Shown one piece after another: positions 1 through 6,541 of a stretch of 64,000 nucleotides of DNA. The notes beneath the pieces were generated by a model. It did no database searches. It saw only the letters and a list, made by a program, of their open reading frames with translations, and was not told the DNA's origin. The translations under genes were made by a program, and so were the position numbers. The stretch is from a virus. Lineage: Duplodnaviria > Caudoviricetes. The stretch's first letter is position 1, and each line of letters opens with the position of its first letter. The DNA lies in IMG/VR virus record IMGVR_UViG_3300025679_000005; one strand, written 5' to 3'.

Positions 1-2
1 CC

Positions 3-605
3 CAAGTCCCGGAGAATTTGATCTCGTTCCATATCGTAGTGGCGAGTGGCCCTGTTGTGCCATCCGGGACGATCCAACTCGATGATCAGCTTTCTGTCGG
101 GGAAGAAAAAATCGGTTACAAAGGACCTGTCGTCAAGCTCGATGACATGTTGGTGAATGAAACTCACTCCGAGAAGCCCCAAAGCTTCAACCACGGCCAG
201 TTCAGTCTTGGGAAAAGCCAGTGCTTTTCCGGATGCATAGAGACGTGCCGCTGCTTTACTCAATCGAGTCCGACCACCTTCAGTGTACTGGTATGGCTTG
301 ATCACGATCCTCTTACTGAAACCGAATCGTCTACCAAGATAATGACAGGTGGGGGAGCAAAAATTCCCGCCATGCTTACTCTTGATGTGGGAAACATGAC
401 GGGTGAAATCCGTCCTGCAAACATCACAGGAGAGGCTGACTTTGGTCTGTTTCTCTTGCCCCCTAAGAATGTAGGAGCACTTCCTGGAGCAGGTAGTTTG
501 TTTTCCCTTGTCCAAGTACTTTTGGGCAGCGAGGTAGGCGATCAAACAGACCGGACAGACTCGTTCGACATTTCTATCCCAGCCGTTGTTTTGGGTCGGT
601 TCCAT
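3..605 (-). CDS. Zn-ribbon + DUF559/Vsr-like endonuclease, 3' end runs off the window; antisense inside the methyltransferase ORF
   Basis: Manual translation from ATG at 605 (minus): MEPTQNNGWDRNVERVCPVC...CSRKC...CDVC...FCSPTC...FIHQHVIELDDRSFVTDFFFPDRKLIIELDRPGWHNRATRHYDMERDQILRDLG. Absent from the ORF track because its stop lies outside the window. Confidence 0.8.
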   Translation of the reverse strand, partial: MEPTQNNGWDRNVERVCPVCLIAYLAAQKYLDKGKQTTCSRKCSYILRGQEKQTKVSLSCDVCRTDFTRHVSHIKSKHGGNFCSPTCHYLGRRFGFSKRIVIKPYQYTEGGRTRLSKAAARLYASGKALAFPKTELAVVEALGLLGVSFIHQHVIELDDRSFVTDFFFPDRKLIIELDRPGWHNRATRHYDMERDQILRDL

Positions 606-2480
606 TCTCCCAGAGTTGCTCAAAAGGACTTTATGAATAAGGGATGGGAGATTCCTAGTGTCTCCGTCTGGAAAGAGGTCTACCGCATACTCAAGCCAGG
701 GGCTTATGTCCTCTGCTTCGGGGGGACCCGAACCTTCGACCTCATTTCAATGGGGCTCCGAGCCGCAGGGTTCGAGAACCGCGACACGATCGCTCATGAG
801 TTCGGCGTTCCTGTTCTTCAGTGGGTCCAAGGGATGGGGATGCCCAAGAGCAGTAACCCAGGTAAGGTTGTCAAGAAAAAGATAGGTTCGTGGGTTGGTT
901 CGCGAGAACCTACTGATGAACACACAGTAGTAAATGCATACTGTACGTGTCTCAAAGAAACTAGAATGGACTCCGGAATTGGAGGTTCTGTTGGGGACAA
1001 TCTCCGATATGCAGCTAGCAGTTCAGATGGGGCTGCCCAGAACGTCGAGTTCAGAGAATCGCGTACGCCATCATCGACGCACGCTAGGTATAACAGCTCA
1101 CAGAACGAAGCTACATGTAGTGATAGTGTGCCTGACTTGCGGGAAAAAGGCCCGCAAGAGGATGAAAGAGATCCGCAAGAACAAGAAAAACTACTGTTCA
1201 CACCCGTGTGCATCGATGGGGCAGAAGACTCGGGATTCAGAGAGTCTGCGCTACGGGCGAGGGTGGAAAGCTCTGAAGGCTCTGGTGTTACAGCGGGACA
1301 AAGCTTGTCGATGCTGCAAACAGATCCCAAAAAGGACTCTTCACGTGCATCACTTGAAACCGTTCCGATTCGGGGGGACCAACAATTTGGAGAACTTGGT
1401 AGCTCTGTGCGATTCGTGTCATCACAAGATAGAGGCGGCAACGACCAGAATTTTGAGTTCGATACAGGTCGTTGTCACTCTAGAAGAATCTTGCTTGACG
1501 ATACAGGTAGATGGGGTCATGCGAGGGCAAGAGTCTGTTCCTGGTGTGGCTCCTTAGACAAGTCCTTTTACGATAGCCTAGAGAATCTTGGCAGTGCACT
1601 GAAGCCTGCTTGGGAGCCGATTCTGGTCTTTCGCAAGCCGGTAGAAAAGACCCTCGTGGAGAATGTGCTCAAGTACGGGACCGGGGGGATCAACATTGAT
1701 GCTACCCGAGTCAAGCACGCCAGCAAAGACGACTTCGAGAAGCACAAGGCACAGGTTGAGGCCGTCAAAGCCAAAGGCGGTGTCCGAGGAGATTCCTGGA
1801 AGAACTCCTCAGACCTCTCAGGAGCTAACGATGTGCAGGAAGGGGGTAGGTGGCCTGCCAACATCTTGCTCACGCATTCTGAGGGCTGCCAGCACAGCGG
1901 AACCACCAAGGTTAAGGCTCACCCCGCTTGGAACGACAACCGCCCACCATCTGCTTTTACCGGCCCAGAGACCTCTCCGGTGCACCATGCTGAAGAGGAT
2001 GGAACCGAAACCGTGGAAGTTTGGAACTGTGTAGAAGGTTGTCCTGTCCTGGCCTTGGAAACCCAAACCGGGCTCCTCAAGAGCGGGCCCCTGAATCAAG
2101 GAGGAGCCTCCAGGTTTTTCCAGCAGTTCGAAGGCCAAGAACTACCCGAGGCCCCGTTCTTTTACACAGCCAAGCCGTCTAAGAACGAGACGACGTTAGG
2201 CGGGCGCATAGAGAACGAACATCCGACGAAGAAGCCTATTGCTCTCATGAAGTGGCTCATTCGATTGGTCACACGAAAGGGGGGACTCACCATTGATCCC
2301 TACTGCGGGTCCGGGTCCACTCTCCACGCAGCCATCGAAGAAGGCGTCAACTTCACGGGAATTGAGAGGGACGAGCCCTCCTACAAGACCTCGGTGGAGC
2401 GTGTCACACTTGTAGCGAAATTGTACGAGGAAGCCCATGTCCAACGAGACCTCTTTGACCTTGCGATGTCGAATGACTGA
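18..2480 (+). CDS. N4/N6 DNA methyltransferase (beta-type), 5' part outside window, with two large in-frame inserts
   Basis: WKEVYRILKPGAYVLCFGGTRTF, GMPKS, ALKPAWEPILVFRKP, HPTKKPIALMKWLIRLVT, DPYCGSGST (SAM-binding motif I). Catalytic DPPY motif not seen, presumably upstream. Confidence 0.85.
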   Translation: MISFHIVVASGPVVPSGTIQLDDQLSVGEEKIGYKGPVVKLDDMLVNETHSEKPQSFNHGQFSLGKSQCFSGCIETCRCFTQSSPTTFSVLVWLDHDPLTETESSTKIMTGGGAKIPAMLTLDVGNMTGEIRPANITGEADFGLFLLPPKNVGALPGAGSLFSLVQVLLGSEVGDQTDRTDSFDISIPAVVLGRFHSPRVAQKDFMNKGWEIPSVSVWKEVYRILKPGAYVLCFGGTRTFDLISMGLRAAGFENRDTIAHEFGVPVLQWVQGMGMPKSSNPGKVVKKKIGSWVGSREPTDEHTVVNAYCTCLKETRMDSGIGGSVGDNLRYAASSSDGAAQNVEFRESRTPSSTHARYNSSQNEATCSDSVPDLREKGPQEDERDPQEQEKLLFTPVCIDGAEDSGFRESALRARVESSEGSGVTAGQSLSMLQTDPKKDSSRASLETVPIRGDQQFGELGSSVRFVSSQDRGGNDQNFEFDTGRCHSRRILLDDTGRWGHARARVCSWCGSLDKSFYDSLENLGSALKPAWEPILVFRKPVEKTLVENVLKYGTGGINIDATRVKHASKDDFEKHKAQVEAVKAKGGVRGDSWKNSSDLSGANDVQEGGRWPANILLTHSEGCQHSGTTKVKAHPAWNDNRPPSAFTGPETSPVHHAEEDGTETVEVWNCVEGCPVLALETQTGLLKSGPLNQGGASRFFQQFEGQELPEAPFFYTAKPSKNETTLGGRIENEHPTKKPIALMKWLIRLVTRKGGLTIDPYCGSGSTLHAAIEEGVNFTGIERDEPSYKTSVERVTLVAKLYEEAHVQRDLFDLAMSND
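934..1557 (+). CDS. HNH endonuclease nested in an alternative frame of the methyltransferase
   Basis: CRCC..LHVHHLKPFRFGGTNNLENLVALCDSCHHKIE; N-terminal CxxC Zn ribbon. Confidence 0.85.
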   Translation: MHTVRVSKKLEWTPELEVLLGTISDMQLAVQMGLPRTSSSENRVRHHRRTLGITAHRTKLHVVIVCLTCGKKARKRMKEIRKNKKNYCSHPCASMGQKTRDSESLRYGRGWKALKALVLQRDKACRCCKQIPKRTLHVHHLKPFRFGGTNNLENLVALCDSCHHKIEAATTRILSSIQVVVTLEESCLTIQVDGVMRGQESVPGVAP

Positions 2481-2973
2481 CCCTCTTGTGAGGTTTGTAG
2501 GTTTGGAGGACAGAGTGTTCAGCCAACCATTCACGGTCATCGATCCCCAGGGCTCGGCGTGGGGAATTGCGTCGGACAAGATCTGGTTCGTAGCCTCCAG
2601 AGGTAAGCACTTTGCTCGCTTTAAGGGTACTATGGATTCTCTGTCCTCAGTTCTTAAGTTGTTGAAGGCAGAACCTTCGGAGTTCATCGAGGCCCTATCC
2701 TCGGGAAAGTCCGTTGTTGAGGGATCCCCTATAGTTTCGATCTTAGGGGTCCCCGTCAGCCAAGACCGCTTGAACACCCTGATCGAGGCCTTCCCTTGTA
2801 GGATCCAGGTGTGGAATTCCTCAGCCTATTTAGGGGTACCTAGCCTAGGGTTCTATTCCAAGGAATGGCGAGCCTTTTTGATGGGCTATGAGAACGTCAT
2901 CGGGGAGGTACCTGAGTCCAACATTGAGGTTCAGGACGAGCGAAGCCTGTTCCGCCTTGCAATGGGTTTATAA
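2437..2973 (+). CDS. hypothetical protein
   Basis: 178-aa ORF overlapping MTase stop; start may be later (MTDPLV). Confidence 0.65.
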   Translation: MSNETSLTLRCRMTDPLVRFVGLEDRVFSQPFTVIDPQGSAWGIASDKIWFVASRGKHFARFKGTMDSLSSVLKLLKAEPSEFIEALSSGKSVVEGSPIVSILGVPVSQDRLNTLIEAFPCRIQVWNSSAYLGVPSLGFYSKEWRAFLMGYENVIGEVPESNIEVQDERSLFRLAMGL

Positions 2974-2999
2974 TGTGCTTTTGAGCAAGGGGATTTGAC

Positions 3000-3440
3000 A
3001 TGTCCTCTACCCCTGCCGCAAGAGTGACCATACGTTATGCGGCGGCCCGGCCAATGAAGCCGGAGAAGATGCAGGCCCTTCTCCTCAAGCTCCGGAAGGG
3101 TGCTGAGGGCAGCTTGCGAATGCCAGAGCTGGTGCAGGTCCTGGACTATCTAGGGGGCTACAAGCTCGAAGAGGCCTTGGTGCTTCAGAGTCAGGAACCT
3201 TACAAGGGTGCCAAGAAGGCTTTCTCTGGATCTCTGGCTCAGGTCAAGGCTGAGTGGGAAGAGATCAAGGCCAATGAGGTCAGCACTCTGCCGACTCATC
3301 CAGTGCTGCACAAGGTGTACTATCAGGATGTCGACCCTATCGTGGAAAAGGGTGACGGCACAGCTTACTTCAGAGCACCTTTCGTCCAGCCATTGTGCTC
3401 ACGGAGTCTGCGCTCTGGTTCTGTCGTGACGCCCGTGTAG
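3000..3440 (+). CDS. hypothetical protein; C-terminus overlaps an antisense GIY-YIG fragment
   Basis: 146-aa ORF; AARVTIRY N-terminal motif resembles the ORF at 9035. Confidence 0.6.
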   Translation: MSSTPAARVTIRYAAARPMKPEKMQALLLKLRKGAEGSLRMPELVQVLDYLGGYKLEEALVLQSQEPYKGAKKAFSGSLAQVKAEWEEIKANEVSTLPTHPVLHKVYYQDVDPIVEKGDGTAYFRAPFVQPLCSRSLRSGSVVTPV

Positions 3441-3520
3441 AGCAGCGTGGCATCGTTCGTGATGATGTAGACGAACCAGGCAGCATTCGTTATCTGAGGC
3501 AATACTTCACTTGTGCTCAT
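3365..3520 (-). pseudogene. truncated GIY-YIG nuclease (YhbQ/UPF0213-like), 51 aa
   Basis: Manual translation: MSTSEVLPQITNAAWFVYIITNDATLLYTGVTTEPERRLREHNGWTKGALK*. Confidence 0.65.
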
Positions 3521-3523
3521 TTA

Positions 3524-4144
3524 ATGGGTATGAGGCTGATAGATATTTCAGGACAGGTCTTTGGACGGTTGACAGTCATTAGGAAGTCTGAAGCACCCTC
3601 CATGTGGGAGTGTCTTTGTTCTTGCGGCACAACCAAGTTATTCACAGGTCCTAATTTGCGCACTGGAAATACCACTTCGTGTGGTTGCTTGCATAGAGAA
3701 AAGTTAGCGGCCTCCAACACAAGTCTGAAGTCCCTCGTGGAGCCATGGCTTGCAGACATGAACCTCTATGTTCGCAAGGTAGGCTATCGTCGGCAGCGAG
3801 GGAAGTTAGGTTCCAATCAATTTGCCTCTGTGGAAGGTAGCCCAGTATCTACTCACCCCTCCAATCATTGGGCACTAGACTTAGAGGCCTACACTAGTTT
3901 GGTGACTGGTATTTGTCATTATTGTGGGAGACCTCCTAATCAATTGCCCAAAGGTGCAAACATGAACCCCAGCTTAAGACGTAATGGCATCGACCGTATG
4001 GACAATACCAGGGGGTATGAACCGGACAATTGTGTATCGTGCTGTGCTTCGTGCAACAGAGAAAAAAGAGCACAGACCTTTGAAGTGTTCGTTGAAAATA
4101 CTAAGCGGCGCTACGAGCACCTAAAGACCAAAGGCTTGCTATAA
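3524..4144 (+). CDS. HNH-like homing endonuclease
   Basis: GQVFGRLTVI..WECLCSCG..LRTGNTTSCGC; CHYCG..NGIDRMDNTRGYEPDNCVSCCASCNREK. Confidence 0.85.
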   Translation: MGMRLIDISGQVFGRLTVIRKSEAPSMWECLCSCGTTKLFTGPNLRTGNTTSCGCLHREKLAASNTSLKSLVEPWLADMNLYVRKVGYRRQRGKLGSNQFASVEGSPVSTHPSNHWALDLEAYTSLVTGICHYCGRPPNQLPKGANMNPSLRRNGIDRMDNTRGYEPDNCVSCCASCNREKRAQTFEVFVENTKRRYEHLKTKGLL

Positions 4145-4147
4145 TAC

Positions 4148-4780
4148 TCACCAGGTGAAGTTGCCTTCAGCCTTACGTAGCTTGAGACGAGTCACGATCC
4201 ATGGGCCATAGGCTAGGTTGAAGAAGAGTCCTCCAGCCCAGCGCTTGCGGTCATAGTCCGACAAGTCTCTCATAGCACGATCACGACGACATTCGATGTT
4301 GAAAGCAGCAGCATCAATCATGGCTTGGCGGTGTTCACCCCAGATAGGGGCATGTGCCATAACCCAAACACTGTAATCGACAGCGCCCTCCTCACAAAAG
4401 GGATCTCCCTCAGGGAACCCTGCCAATGAAGCGTGCATGAACTCGTGGGTGAGCTTCTCCAAGGTCGTTCCTGGCTTGCCCTCAACGATGGATGGTGAGA
4501 GGCGGACCTGACCGTTGTCGGGTTGGAAGCTGGCGTTGGCACCACCCGAGTGGGCCCCATCATGGATCGAGAGGATCTCAGACATGGGCTCCTGTTGGTA
4601 GGGGCCTAGGGCTTGGGCGATGAAGGCGTAGCACTTCGGGGCCCACTCCTCGATGAACTTGTTCCACTCTGGGCTACACACGCTCGTGGTGAACTGCTTG
4701 GCCGCCCTTTTTGGCAGGATCGAGGCAGTCCTCAGGGTATGCTGCACTTCTGCTGGAAATGGGTTCACCCCAAAGCTCAT
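4148..4780 (-). CDS. putative zincin-like metallopeptidase
   Basis: THEFMHASL HExxH with downstream EEG. Confidence 0.65.
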   Translation of the reverse strand: MSFGVNPFPAEVQHTLRTASILPKRAAKQFTTSVCSPEWNKFIEEWAPKCYAFIAQALGPYQQEPMSEILSIHDGAHSGGANASFQPDNGQVRLSPSIVEGKPGTTLEKLTHEFMHASLAGFPEGDPFCEEGAVDYSVWVMAHAPIWGEHRQAMIDAAAFNIECRRDRAMRDLSDYDRKRWAGGLFFNLAYGPWIVTRLKLRKAEGNFTW

Positions 4781-4820
4781 TTATCAAAACCCTATGGATT
4801 TCTGGTGTATACCACCGGAT

Positions 4821-5219
4821 ATGTCCATGTCCTCAAAGATCACCACGATGATTGCGGCCAACCCTGGCTGGCTGGCCGTTTTCACTACGGCTGAAGGGAA
4901 CCCAATTTTCGTGCCGGTAGCCGCCTGGGCTTCCTTCGAGCATGAAGATGAGGGTGAGGAAATGTGGCCATCGGTTGAAGCCATGATTGCGGACGGTTTC
5001 CGTATCGTTCCAATCTACATTCAAGAAGAGTACGACGTGGATATGTTGGTCGGGATCTTCGGCCCTGAGCAGGTGGCAGCTACCGGACCCAAAGCCTGGA
5101 CCGAAAAATGCTTAGATTACCTGGCTGAAATCAAGAGCCTGGAGGCAGAGCATGCAGCGAACTGCCCTCACCATGGCGCCGAAGCCAATGAACTGAAGCT
5201 AGTTCCCAAGCCCAACTGA
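4821..5219 (+). CDS. hypothetical protein
   Basis: Acidic ORF; ATG 12 nt after a GGTGTA motif. Confidence 0.65.
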   Translation: MSMSSKITTMIAANPGWLAVFTTAEGNPIFVPVAAWASFEHEDEGEEMWPSVEAMIADGFRIVPIYIQEEYDVDMLVGIFGPEQVAATGPKAWTEKCLDYLAEIKSLEAEHAANCPHHGAEANELKLVPKPN

Positions 5220-5336
5220 AGCCTCTCAAAGAAAAGATCACCCGACCCAAACTTTCTACTTGACGTTTCACTTATAGCACTGTACTTACTAGGGACGCTG
5301 GTTGCAGAGCCAGCACCTATCCAAAAGCAAAAGGTC

Positions 5337-5567
5337 ATGTCTACTTCAACCGCAACCACACATACCAGCAAACCGGAGCTAACAGCTTCTGTGCTGTGGT
5401 GTGGGGTCAAGTTGGGACGGACCGTCAGTGGGATCAAGTTGGGCCGAGGCTTCGGCGGTCAGTCCCCCATGACGACCTCAACGCTCGGCGGCCTCCGCCA
5501 GGATAGCCAGAAGTATTCGCAACCAGCCTCCATTTCGTTCGCTGGCAATCTGGAGGCAGAAGCGTAA
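5337..5567 (+). CDS. putative leader peptide (76 aa) of the tRNA array
   Basis: AAAGG RBS; Thr/Ser-rich N-terminus; stop abuts antiterminator/terminator structure. Confidence 0.5.
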   Translation: MSTSTATTHTSKPELTASVLWCGVKLGRTVSGIKLGRGFGGQSPMTTSTLGGLRQDSQKYSQPASISFAGNLEAEA

Positions 5568-5630
5568 GGCGGTTTAGGATCACCCCCAAAGGGATCTGAA
5601 ACCGCCTCCGAAAGGAAGAGCGGTTTTTTT
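5567..5630 (+). terminator. intrinsic terminator with competing antiterminator (attenuator-like)
   Basis: AAACCGC(5599-5605)/GCGGTTT(5620-5626), GAAA loop, T-tract; alternative helix AGGCGGTTT(5567-5575)/AAACCGCCT(5599-5607). Confidence 0.7.
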
Positions 5631-5652
5631 CGTTTTAGGGCTCAGAAATTAC

Positions 5653-5735
5653 GGGTCGTGTGCTGCGCCGGGACGCAGGTCTGACTGTAAATCAGATGTC
5701 AATTGGCTATCTAGGTTCGACTCCTAGGCGACCCA
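5653..5735 (+). tRNA. tRNA-Tyr(GTA)
   Basis: Loop CTGTAAA, long V region, T-loop TTCGACT. Confidence 0.85.
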
Positions 5736-5791
5736 CTAGGAGAAACACATATCATGGAGAGGAGAATCAAACAGAGCTGCTGACACCCTGC

Positions 5792-5863
5792 GGGCCAGTA
5801 GCTAAGTGGTAAAGCTTTCGACTTTTAATCGAATGATCGCCGGTTCGAACCCGGCCTGGCCCA
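5792..5863 (+). tRNA. tRNA-Lys(TTT)
   Basis: Cloverleaf, loop CTTTTAA. Confidence 0.9.
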
Positions 5864-5905
5864 CCTTAAATGGGTGTCTTAATCTGCTTGTAAACCGATC
5901 CTAGT

Positions 5906-6541
5906 ATGCAAAGGGATCGACAGCTACACTCAGATTACACCACTCTGAAGATGAGGATTAGGCACAAGAGGTTGAAGCAACGAGCAGTCGACTATAAGGG
6001 CGGCAAGTGTGAGACCTGCGGATATGACAAATGTCTGTCCGCTTTGGAATTCCACCACACCGATCCAAATGAGAAAGACTTCGGGATAGCTTCTTCCACC
6101 AGATCTTGGGAAAGTGTCAAAGCAGAACTGATCAAGTGTAAGATGCTGTGTTCCAATTGTCACAGGGAAGAGCATGAACGGCTGACGGACTCTAAGCATG
6201 AAGAGCTTACCGTGAAGGTAAGGGAAGTCATACCAGAGAGGCCACCGGGGTTAAAAGCAGTCAGTCACTACTGCCTTGTTTGCAAAAAGGTTTTTGAGAC
6301 AGATGAGCCTGAACGCAAATTTTGCAGCACACTATGTACTCACAAAGATCAGGAAGTTACGAGCTGGCCCAGCGATTCTGAGCTGGCCCAAATAGTGTGG
6401 CAGATGCCTGTGAGTGCTGTCGCAAAGCAACTGAATGTCTCCGACAAAGCTATTTCCAAACGATGTAAACTGAGAGGCATAGAGACTCCAGGTAGAGGTT
6501 ACTGGCAACGACAACGGGTGTATAACTCAATGGTAGAGTAG
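5906..6541 (+). CDS. HNH endonuclease, family A (C-terminal WPS..LVW..LGVS..RGYW HTH-like tail)
   Basis: CETCGYDKCLSALEFHHTDP..LCSNCHREEH; stop lies in the D-arm of tRNA-Lys. Confidence 0.85.
   Translation: MQRDRQLHSDYTTLKMRIRHKRLKQRAVDYKGGKCETCGYDKCLSALEFHHTDPNEKDFGIASSTRSWESVKAELIKCKMLCSNCHREEHERLTDSKHEELTVKVREVIPERPPGLKAVSHYCLVCKKVFETDEPERKFCSTLCTHKDQEVTSWPSDSELAQIVWQMPVSAVAKQLNVSDKAISKRCKLRGIETPGRGYWQRQRVYNSMVE

Follow-up and report, generated by a model that had tools for sequence, protein, structure and literature searches.

The ShiLan domain was named by Gosselin et al. 2023 (PMC9957025) in the DNA methylases of actinobacteriophages, and Arsenault, Gosselin & Gogarten 2025 (PMC11855218) reported that it hides an HNH endonuclease that is out of frame. 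The latter study noted that features of introns and inteins were absent and proposed that the element remains in the methylase as a loop. The previously known cases are from temperate mycobacteriophages. We analyzed a stretch of 64,000 nucleotides (the window) from IMG/VR virus record IMGVR_UViG_3300025679_000005 (Duplodnaviria; Caudoviricetes), taken from the minus strand of this 155-kb record, in which an HNH gene lies in another frame of a DNA methylase gene. Judging from the sequence, we consider it quite probable that positions 852-1595 of the window constitute a ShiLan-type homing cassette, that is, a free-standing HNH gene that sits in a methylase loop with neither an intron nor an intein and that is translated through.

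In the mechanism that we propose, the cassette would be lodged in a hypervariable surface loop of a PF01555 methylase, between the motifs GFPKS and GTALKP, and the HNH protein would be made in the +1 frame from an ATG of its own. Ribosomes in the methylase frame would read through the whole cassette, since selection would have purged every host-frame stop, and this read-through would add a mostly disordered, hydrophilic loop of ~220 residues to an otherwise intact methylase. An earlier note on this DNA had suggested that nuclease genes which keep the host frame open follow a recurrent stealth strategy; our results supported that suggestion, although the strategy had already been published for exactly this element family (PMC9957025, PMC11855218).

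The HNH gene and its methylase host

The host is an N6/N4 DNA methylase gene of the PF01555 family on the plus strand (1..2480), which starts 246 nucleotides before the window. Its frame is open from before the window start to position 2480 and, together with the upstream 246 nucleotides, makes a single open reading frame (ORF) of 908 amino acids. PF01555 was the sole Pfam family matched in the methylase-frame translation (E 9.4e-25, with the 825 residues that lie within the window), and a tblastn search with the methylase matched 492 phage records, including the methylases of Taj, Violet and Optimus. The window methylase kept 86 of the 89 strongly conserved columns of the family, and its motif IV variant, DVPY, was also present in six other relatives; the gene does not look decayed. 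Alignment with relatives revealed two large extra segments in the 908-residue protein. Residues 54-290 overlie an antisense DUF559/Vsr-like ORF (the first insert), and residues 367-614 correspond to window positions 852-1595 (the second insert, which is the cassette). The methylase protein was also recorded on a contig of 465,854 bp, and a search of sequencing runs located the stretch in a single DNA run, a peat metagenome, and in no RNA run. In a separate Logan assembly, of a run that is probably the source sample's own, the identical 2600 bases formed one unbroken piece of a contig whose mean depth over its full length was 84; neither a joined (empty) form nor variants were seen in this assembly, where only the source-like contig appeared.

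The cassette-bearing linker (852..1595, plus strand) runs from the motif GMPKS, which ends at 851, to the motif ALKPAWEP, which begins at 1596. The earlier note had described this stretch as open over about 230 codons; it is indeed stop-free in the host frame but measures 248 codons. The hidden HNH endonuclease ORF (934..1557, plus strand) encodes 207 amino acids in the +1 frame relative to the methylase and matched PF01844 with an E value of 5.5e-8. It aligned over its full length to its homologues, and so the intact HNH ORF claimed earlier at these positions was borne out. The catalytic core with its CxxC...CxxC zinc site covers HNH residues 125-166 (1306..1431, plus strand, the range of the Pfam match, with conserved His, Asn and Cys), and the His/Asn/His core as well as both CxxC pairs are conserved in the homologue alignment. 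We found 28 related metagenome proteins at 42-55% identity, plus one partial match. A search of IMG/VR for related loci returned nothing with the window HNH and one distant locus with the C-terminal part of the methylase.

The relationship to the mycobacteriophage elements was evident at both the DNA and protein levels. By blastn, bases 1342-1437 were 79% identical to 16 mycobacteriophage records in which an HNH gene is annotated inside a DNA methylase gene, for example gp97/gp98 of StellaBean and gp57 of Violet, the latter annotated as 'HNH endonuclease domain out of frame'. A tblastn search with the HNH protein (E<=1e-8) matched 18 phage records, all of them from mycobacteriophages and all inside the methylase locus, at 48.0-48.5% identity over 95% of the query (best E 6e-57); the identity to the copies within the Violet, SG4, StellaBean and Optimus methylases was 48.5%. 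By this homology, and with its methylase family, insertion site and frame relation in common, the window element is a member of the published ShiLan hidden-HNH kind. According to the 2025 paper no ribosome-binding site of the hidden HNH is detectable (PMC11855218). We observed GAGG, AGGA or AAGG 9-11 nucleotides upstream of the hidden HNH ATG in 4 of the 9 copies, StellaBean included; these Shine-Dalgarno-like sites lie at L002:2080-2104 and at positions 2976-3000 of loci L006, L009 and L011.

The insertion site occupies the same alignment columns, between GFPKS and GTALKP, as that of StellaBean gp97 and of six metagenome copies. Among the 149 nearest cluster representatives, which came from an exhaustive search with the 908-residue protein, the HNH insert was present in frame in 15 and the DUF559 insert in 18, and no representative had both. 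Alleles lacking the HNH insert, with which a comparison had been proposed in the earlier note, were found in close relatives. In the protein P0031, from the syntenic relative L022, the first insert was present and the site of the second was empty, with a linker of 25 residues; the DNA homology between the window and L022 stops near 851-854 and restarts near 1590-1596. Similarly, within cluster E, StellaBean and Dusk are 99% identical in the flanks on both sides of a linker that has 240 residues in StellaBean and 59 in Dusk. Since the whole linker differs between these two phages, invasion appears to replace the linker, as would be expected from co-conversion. Uninvaded relatives have a linker of 8 to 368 residues, a spread which suggests that it is a permissive surface loop. 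The disjunct distribution, with 15 carriers in 149 and empty alleles in close relatives, implies mobility. We infer that the HNH protein cuts empty alleles, which then acquire the cassette by repair, the whole linker being co-converted. At another locus (L013:3001-3786), the first ~40 methylase residues, including the DPPY motif, are fused in frame to an HNH; this looks like a decayed host gene.

Selection on the host frame

We used as the null model 20,000 synonymous-codon shuffles in which the HNH protein and its codon usage were held fixed. The shuffled sequences had a mean of 8.66 host-frame stops across the HNH span while the window had none, and zero stops were obtained in 0 of the 20,000 shuffles (P<5e-5). 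Relatives were sampled via the HNH protein and not via the methylase, to avoid ascertainment bias. All eight of the methylase-embedded metagenome copies, as well as StellaBean, had the same methylase offset (HNH frame +2) and contained no stops where 2.8-7.5 were expected. Overall, host-frame stops within the insert occurred in 0 of 9 DNA copies, with 2.8-8.7 expected per copy; the routine stops that the earlier note had named as a sign against a read-through element were absent from the homologues. The sampled copies were only 44-52% identical to the window HNH, with a third-position identity of about 0.4, indicating that the purging of stops is maintained and not merely inherited. These codon statistics support the view that selection maintains an open host frame. 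There was weak support for further selection toward a hydrophilic loop, over and above the coding demands of the HNH (z +0.5 to +4.8, in one direction among copies that are related).

The pattern of constraint also changed along the cassette. Its body shows the pattern of the HNH frame, with codon positions 1 and 2 conserved, position 3 free, and an amino-acid identity that is higher for HNH than for the host frame. Over the last nine HNH codons, however, the identity was 0.44 at HNH position 2 and 0.73 at position 3, and the amino-acid identity was 0.73 in the host frame versus 0.40 in the HNH frame. Two host-frame cysteine motifs lie at these ends: a CxC (methylase Cys397 and Cys399; 942..950, plus strand) that overlaps HNH codons 3-6, and a CxxCG knuckle (Cys595, Cys598 and Gly599; 1536..1550, plus strand) that overlaps the last HNH codons. 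At the 3' end the host frame reads V-C-S-W-C-G, where Cys is encoded by TGC and TGT only, Ser by all four TCN codons and Gly by all four GGN codons, with P, L, R or H as the HNH residue in the overlap. At the 5' CxC the overlapping HNH residues vary (T, D, H, R, N; R, I, Y, V), always with the T-ending codon that is needed for the host-frame Cys. Since constraint passes to the host frame at both ends of the cassette, we take this pattern as direct evidence, from sequence, of translation of the methylase frame across the cassette. Together with the open host frame, which extends far beyond chance, it supports the proposal in the earlier note of a methylase made as one long polypeptide; the claim of two nuclease invasions that both keep the host frame open, one by the +1 HNH and one by the antisense DUF559 gene, likewise held.

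Given the HNH protein and its codon usage, the probability that all four cysteines are kept by chance was 0.0003-0.04 per copy, yet they were kept in 9 of 9 DNA copies. A search with a profile of 14 loops recovered 50 protein clusters, of which 49 had the four cysteines, including those of Violet, SG4, Optimus and Tasp14. When the window's own loop peptide was used as the query of a protein search, only the query was returned, the peptide having diverged too far for the word index. The CxC/CxxCG pair was absent from all of about 110 uninvaded linkers. At L007:2961-3737 we noted an ectopic copy of the cassette, beside an H-NS-like gene and without a methylase, in which the +2 frame is stop-free and both cysteine pairs are kept. 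Since this copy outside any methylase carries both pairs, they appear to belong to the cassette. An unrelated second cassette was detected in the same methylase linker (proteins P0066 and P0161; loci L024:1279-1850 and L026:980-1600). Its hidden ORF, in the +1 frame, is of the HNH_3 type (PF13392, E 6.3e-5, just under Pfam's cut-off), its host frame has 0 stops where 3.6 and 10.6 were expected, and in the host frame a CxC lies where the ORF begins and a CxxCG (CGGCG, CPRCG) shortly before its stop.

The sequence C-P-x-C-G is the classic rubredoxin knuckle. We give a roughly even chance to the prediction that CxC and C[S/P]xCG together bind one zinc ion, which would tie the loop ends and leave the methylase fold undisturbed. 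A full-length methylase model, suggested in the earlier note as a check, was obtained with AlphaFold2 (AF2); it has a confident methylase core and a loop in which residues 390-565 have a predicted local distance difference test (pLDDT) value of 30-40 and almost no secondary structure. In an AF2 sub-model built with 45 loop-bearing sequences, the pLDDT was 70 at CxC and 87 at CxxCG; the full model gave 36 at CxC, and CxxCG remained at about 85-87 across the AF2 models. Isolated bridge residues adjoin each cysteine motif in the sub-model (model residues 56 and 261). Prediction of a complex of the N-end peptide, the C-end peptide and Zn gave a score of 0.15, with a mark of 0.32, which speaks neither for nor against the site. 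The support that modelling lends to the predicted clasp is modest, and the only moderate confidence at CxC counts against it. A broader proposal is that the cassette carries its own device for protecting the host, in which two halves of a zinc knuckle, encoded in the host frame by the outermost codons of the HNH ORF, clamp the ends of a ~200-residue loop and substitute for splicing; given the matching layout of the unrelated HNH_3 cassette, this would be a convergent and general adaptation of homing genes that have neither an intron nor an intein. We find this possible but lean somewhat against it.

We also examined the third open frame, on the minus strand at 818..1441, to which the earlier note had drawn attention. 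The frame exists and is 207 amino acids long, but it is not a conserved gene. The codon shuffles predicted 6.8 antisense stops and 2 were seen (P 0.008); given an open host frame, 5.1 were expected (P 0.05 by stop count, P 0.01 by longest run). The host-frame stops TAA and TAG share the T(position 3)-A(position 1) dinucleotide with the antisense stops TTA and CTA. In the embedded relatives antisense stops were few and fell at differing codons (28, 40, 133, 139, 148, 160 and 197), indicating that there is no common antisense ORF. With stop positions that are not conserved, a TA constraint in common with the host frame and no Pfam match, the frame was rejected as a gene and is regarded as a by-product. 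A promoter-like sequence (GTGACA-17-CAAAAT; 1450-1478, minus strand) is found just upstream of the antisense ORF, which starts at 1441. The region contained 2 such promoter-like sites versus 1.3 expected, which is the chance level.

Alternatives to the proposed translated homing cassette

Phage group I introns often hold HNH genes and lie in conserved genes, and so the insert might instead be an HNH-encoding intron of group I (or II) that is spliced from the mRNA, the open host frame being incidental. Introns of cluster J mycobacteriophages have been described (PMC3706429). However, no Rfam intron match was found at E<=1 in bases 1-6000, so that the group I intron elements considered in the earlier note did not appear. 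Furthermore, the HNH ORF takes up 624 of the ~660 extra bases and leaves <40 bases outside the ORF; because the ORF fills almost all of the extra DNA, there is no room for a ribozyme core. The same gene family is also invaded by true inteins (PMC9957025), an apparent one lying at the HPTxKP motif in locus L005, and the insert is in frame within a conserved gene, as an unusual intein removed by protein splicing would be. Against this, the host-frame translation matched only PF01555 and neither a Hint nor an intein family, disorder is predicted for the loop, the nuclease is in the other frame, and the body of the insert has the codon-position pattern of an HNH gene. Every copy is purged of stops, and at the ends the host frame is under selection at the amino-acid level. 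Since splicing of either RNA or protein would make the purging of stops unnecessary, we consider an intron very unlikely and an intein extremely so.

The two remaining alternatives accept an unspliced insert. The methylase might be made as two polypeptides, with a C-terminal part that is started internally and with read-through being of use only for the coupling of translation or the stability of the mRNA. In many copies, gene callers annotate an HNH gene and a separate C-terminal methylase ORF, and phage genes that have been split by homing nucleases, such as nrdA of Aeh1 with mobE, can stay functional. In addition, the cassette-bearing methylase at L016:2466-2945 has an in-frame stop in its YGSG-FPKS motif, 19 codons upstream of where the HNH starts; the gene could be split or a pseudogene, or the stop could stem from an error of sequencing. 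A split enzyme would not need more than 200 stop-free codons in every copy, though, and the conserved host-frame residues at both ends argue for a loop within one chain, and we therefore judge it quite improbable. Alternatively, the cassette and the methylase might form a domesticated unit, in which the four-cysteine loop acts as a DNA-binding or regulatory module and the HNH serves the phage, for example against co-infecting phages. Purifying selection on CxC and CxxCG in the host frame would fit such a role, as would the retention of the cassette in many diverged lineages and the cysteine-rich ribbons in the same loop of some uninvaded relatives (P0058, P0107). On the other hand, the distribution is patchy and close relatives have empty alleles, the loop body has a pLDDT of 30-40 with little host-frame conservation, and the ectopic copy at L007 lies outside any methylase; domestication thus seems improbable, although it deserves mention.

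A homing cassette that is translated through the methylase thus remains the reading that we prefer, and several observations weigh against it. The window has no Shine-Dalgarno-like sequence upstream of the HNH ATG, which is directly preceded by two stops in the HNH frame, so that internal initiation of the HNH would be required; no internal promoter for the HNH was found either, the matches of a promoter scan being at chance level only. In the published description of the ShiLan element, whose boundaries depend on an alignment, the HNH begins with GTG at 18 bp inside the insert, ends at TAAC and occupies the 'third frame'. We read ATG, TAG-A and +1 in the window and ATG, TAGC and +1 in StellaBean and Violet, on neither of which could the published GTG and TAAC be placed. 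Read-through is not universal, as the methylase frame of L016 stops 19 codons upstream of the cassette. Host-frame selection on amino acids in the loop is weak except at the ends.

Neighbouring inserts and comparison with known systems

The first insert of the methylase gene is the antisense DUF559/Vsr-like nuclease ORF of 235 amino acids (1..623, minus strand, running 84 nucleotides past the window start; L001:1578-2285), which matched PF04480 with an E value of 1.1e-4. The methylase frame reads through this insert as well. The closest methylase with the second insert, at L005:2517-5294, has in addition an apparent mini-intein at HPTxKP, starting with Cys after 'DHP' and ending in '...SHN' before 'TKKP'. 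Because L005 has this apparent mini-intein too, the methylase family would be a hotspot for at least 4 kinds of mobile insert. Downstream of the methylase gene, a short ORF (3365-3520, minus strand) has a GIY-YIG-like N-terminus, and a gene called as GIY-YIG is found in the syntenic place in L022. A 249-residue ORF (3395-4144, plus strand) has a C-terminus that resembles an HNH motif (C..C ... D N.. N.... C.. C N); no Pfam match was found for it at E<=0.01.

The locus extends a third mode, described very recently, in which homing endonuclease genes reside inside host genes by being translated through, with neither RNA nor protein splicing. It also extends the host range to an uncultivated peat phage of ~465 kb with a different base composition. 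Beyond the two published papers, we add a quantitative test for selection on the open frame, in the form of the stop-purging statistics, as well as codon-level evidence of host-frame translation, in that constraint changes frame at both ends of the cassette, and a conserved pair of cysteine motifs (four cysteines) in the host frame, whose function we infer. This pair would give experimental access to the question of how an enzyme tolerates a 200-residue loop encoded by a parasite. When genomes are annotated, methylase genes of 600-900 amino acids with 'low-complexity' inserts merit a check for nested nuclease genes.

The window element resembles the ShiLan domain in its PF01555 host family, in which Taj gp79 of PMC9957025 was matched, and in the position of its loop between GFPKS and GTALKP. 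Both have a homologous HNH, a stop-free host frame, a patchy distribution, a disordered read-through loop and no intron or intein signal, and the 207 residues of the window HNH fall within the ~195-210 residues of the known ones. In contrast to the mycobacteriophage cases, the host here is an uncultivated giant peat phage (the 465,854-bp contig), and the cassette has a guanine-cytosine content of about 50% whereas the other copies have 58-68%. The window gene was, moreover, invaded twice, a combination seen in 0 of the 149 nearest relatives. While PMC11855218 reported that a zinc-finger-like region is absent from the host frame, we found a conserved CxC and CxxCG under host-frame selection.

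Homing endonucleases encoded by introns or inteins (I-HmuI; the mycobacteriophage inteins of PMC5050341) have in common with this cassette a selfish nuclease, a conserved site in a conserved phage gene, a patchy distribution and probable homing by double-strand-break repair. They differ in that the window cassette has no element for RNA or protein splicing, and harm to the host would be avoided by translation through the element. The free-standing homing endonuclease gene mobE of phage Aeh1 splits nrdA, and the split gene stays functional; here too there is no intron or intein, and a nuclease gene lies within a coding region that stays functional. However, nrdA of Aeh1 becomes two ORFs, whereas the window methylase stays a single ORF and shares its bases with a nuclease gene read in a different frame.

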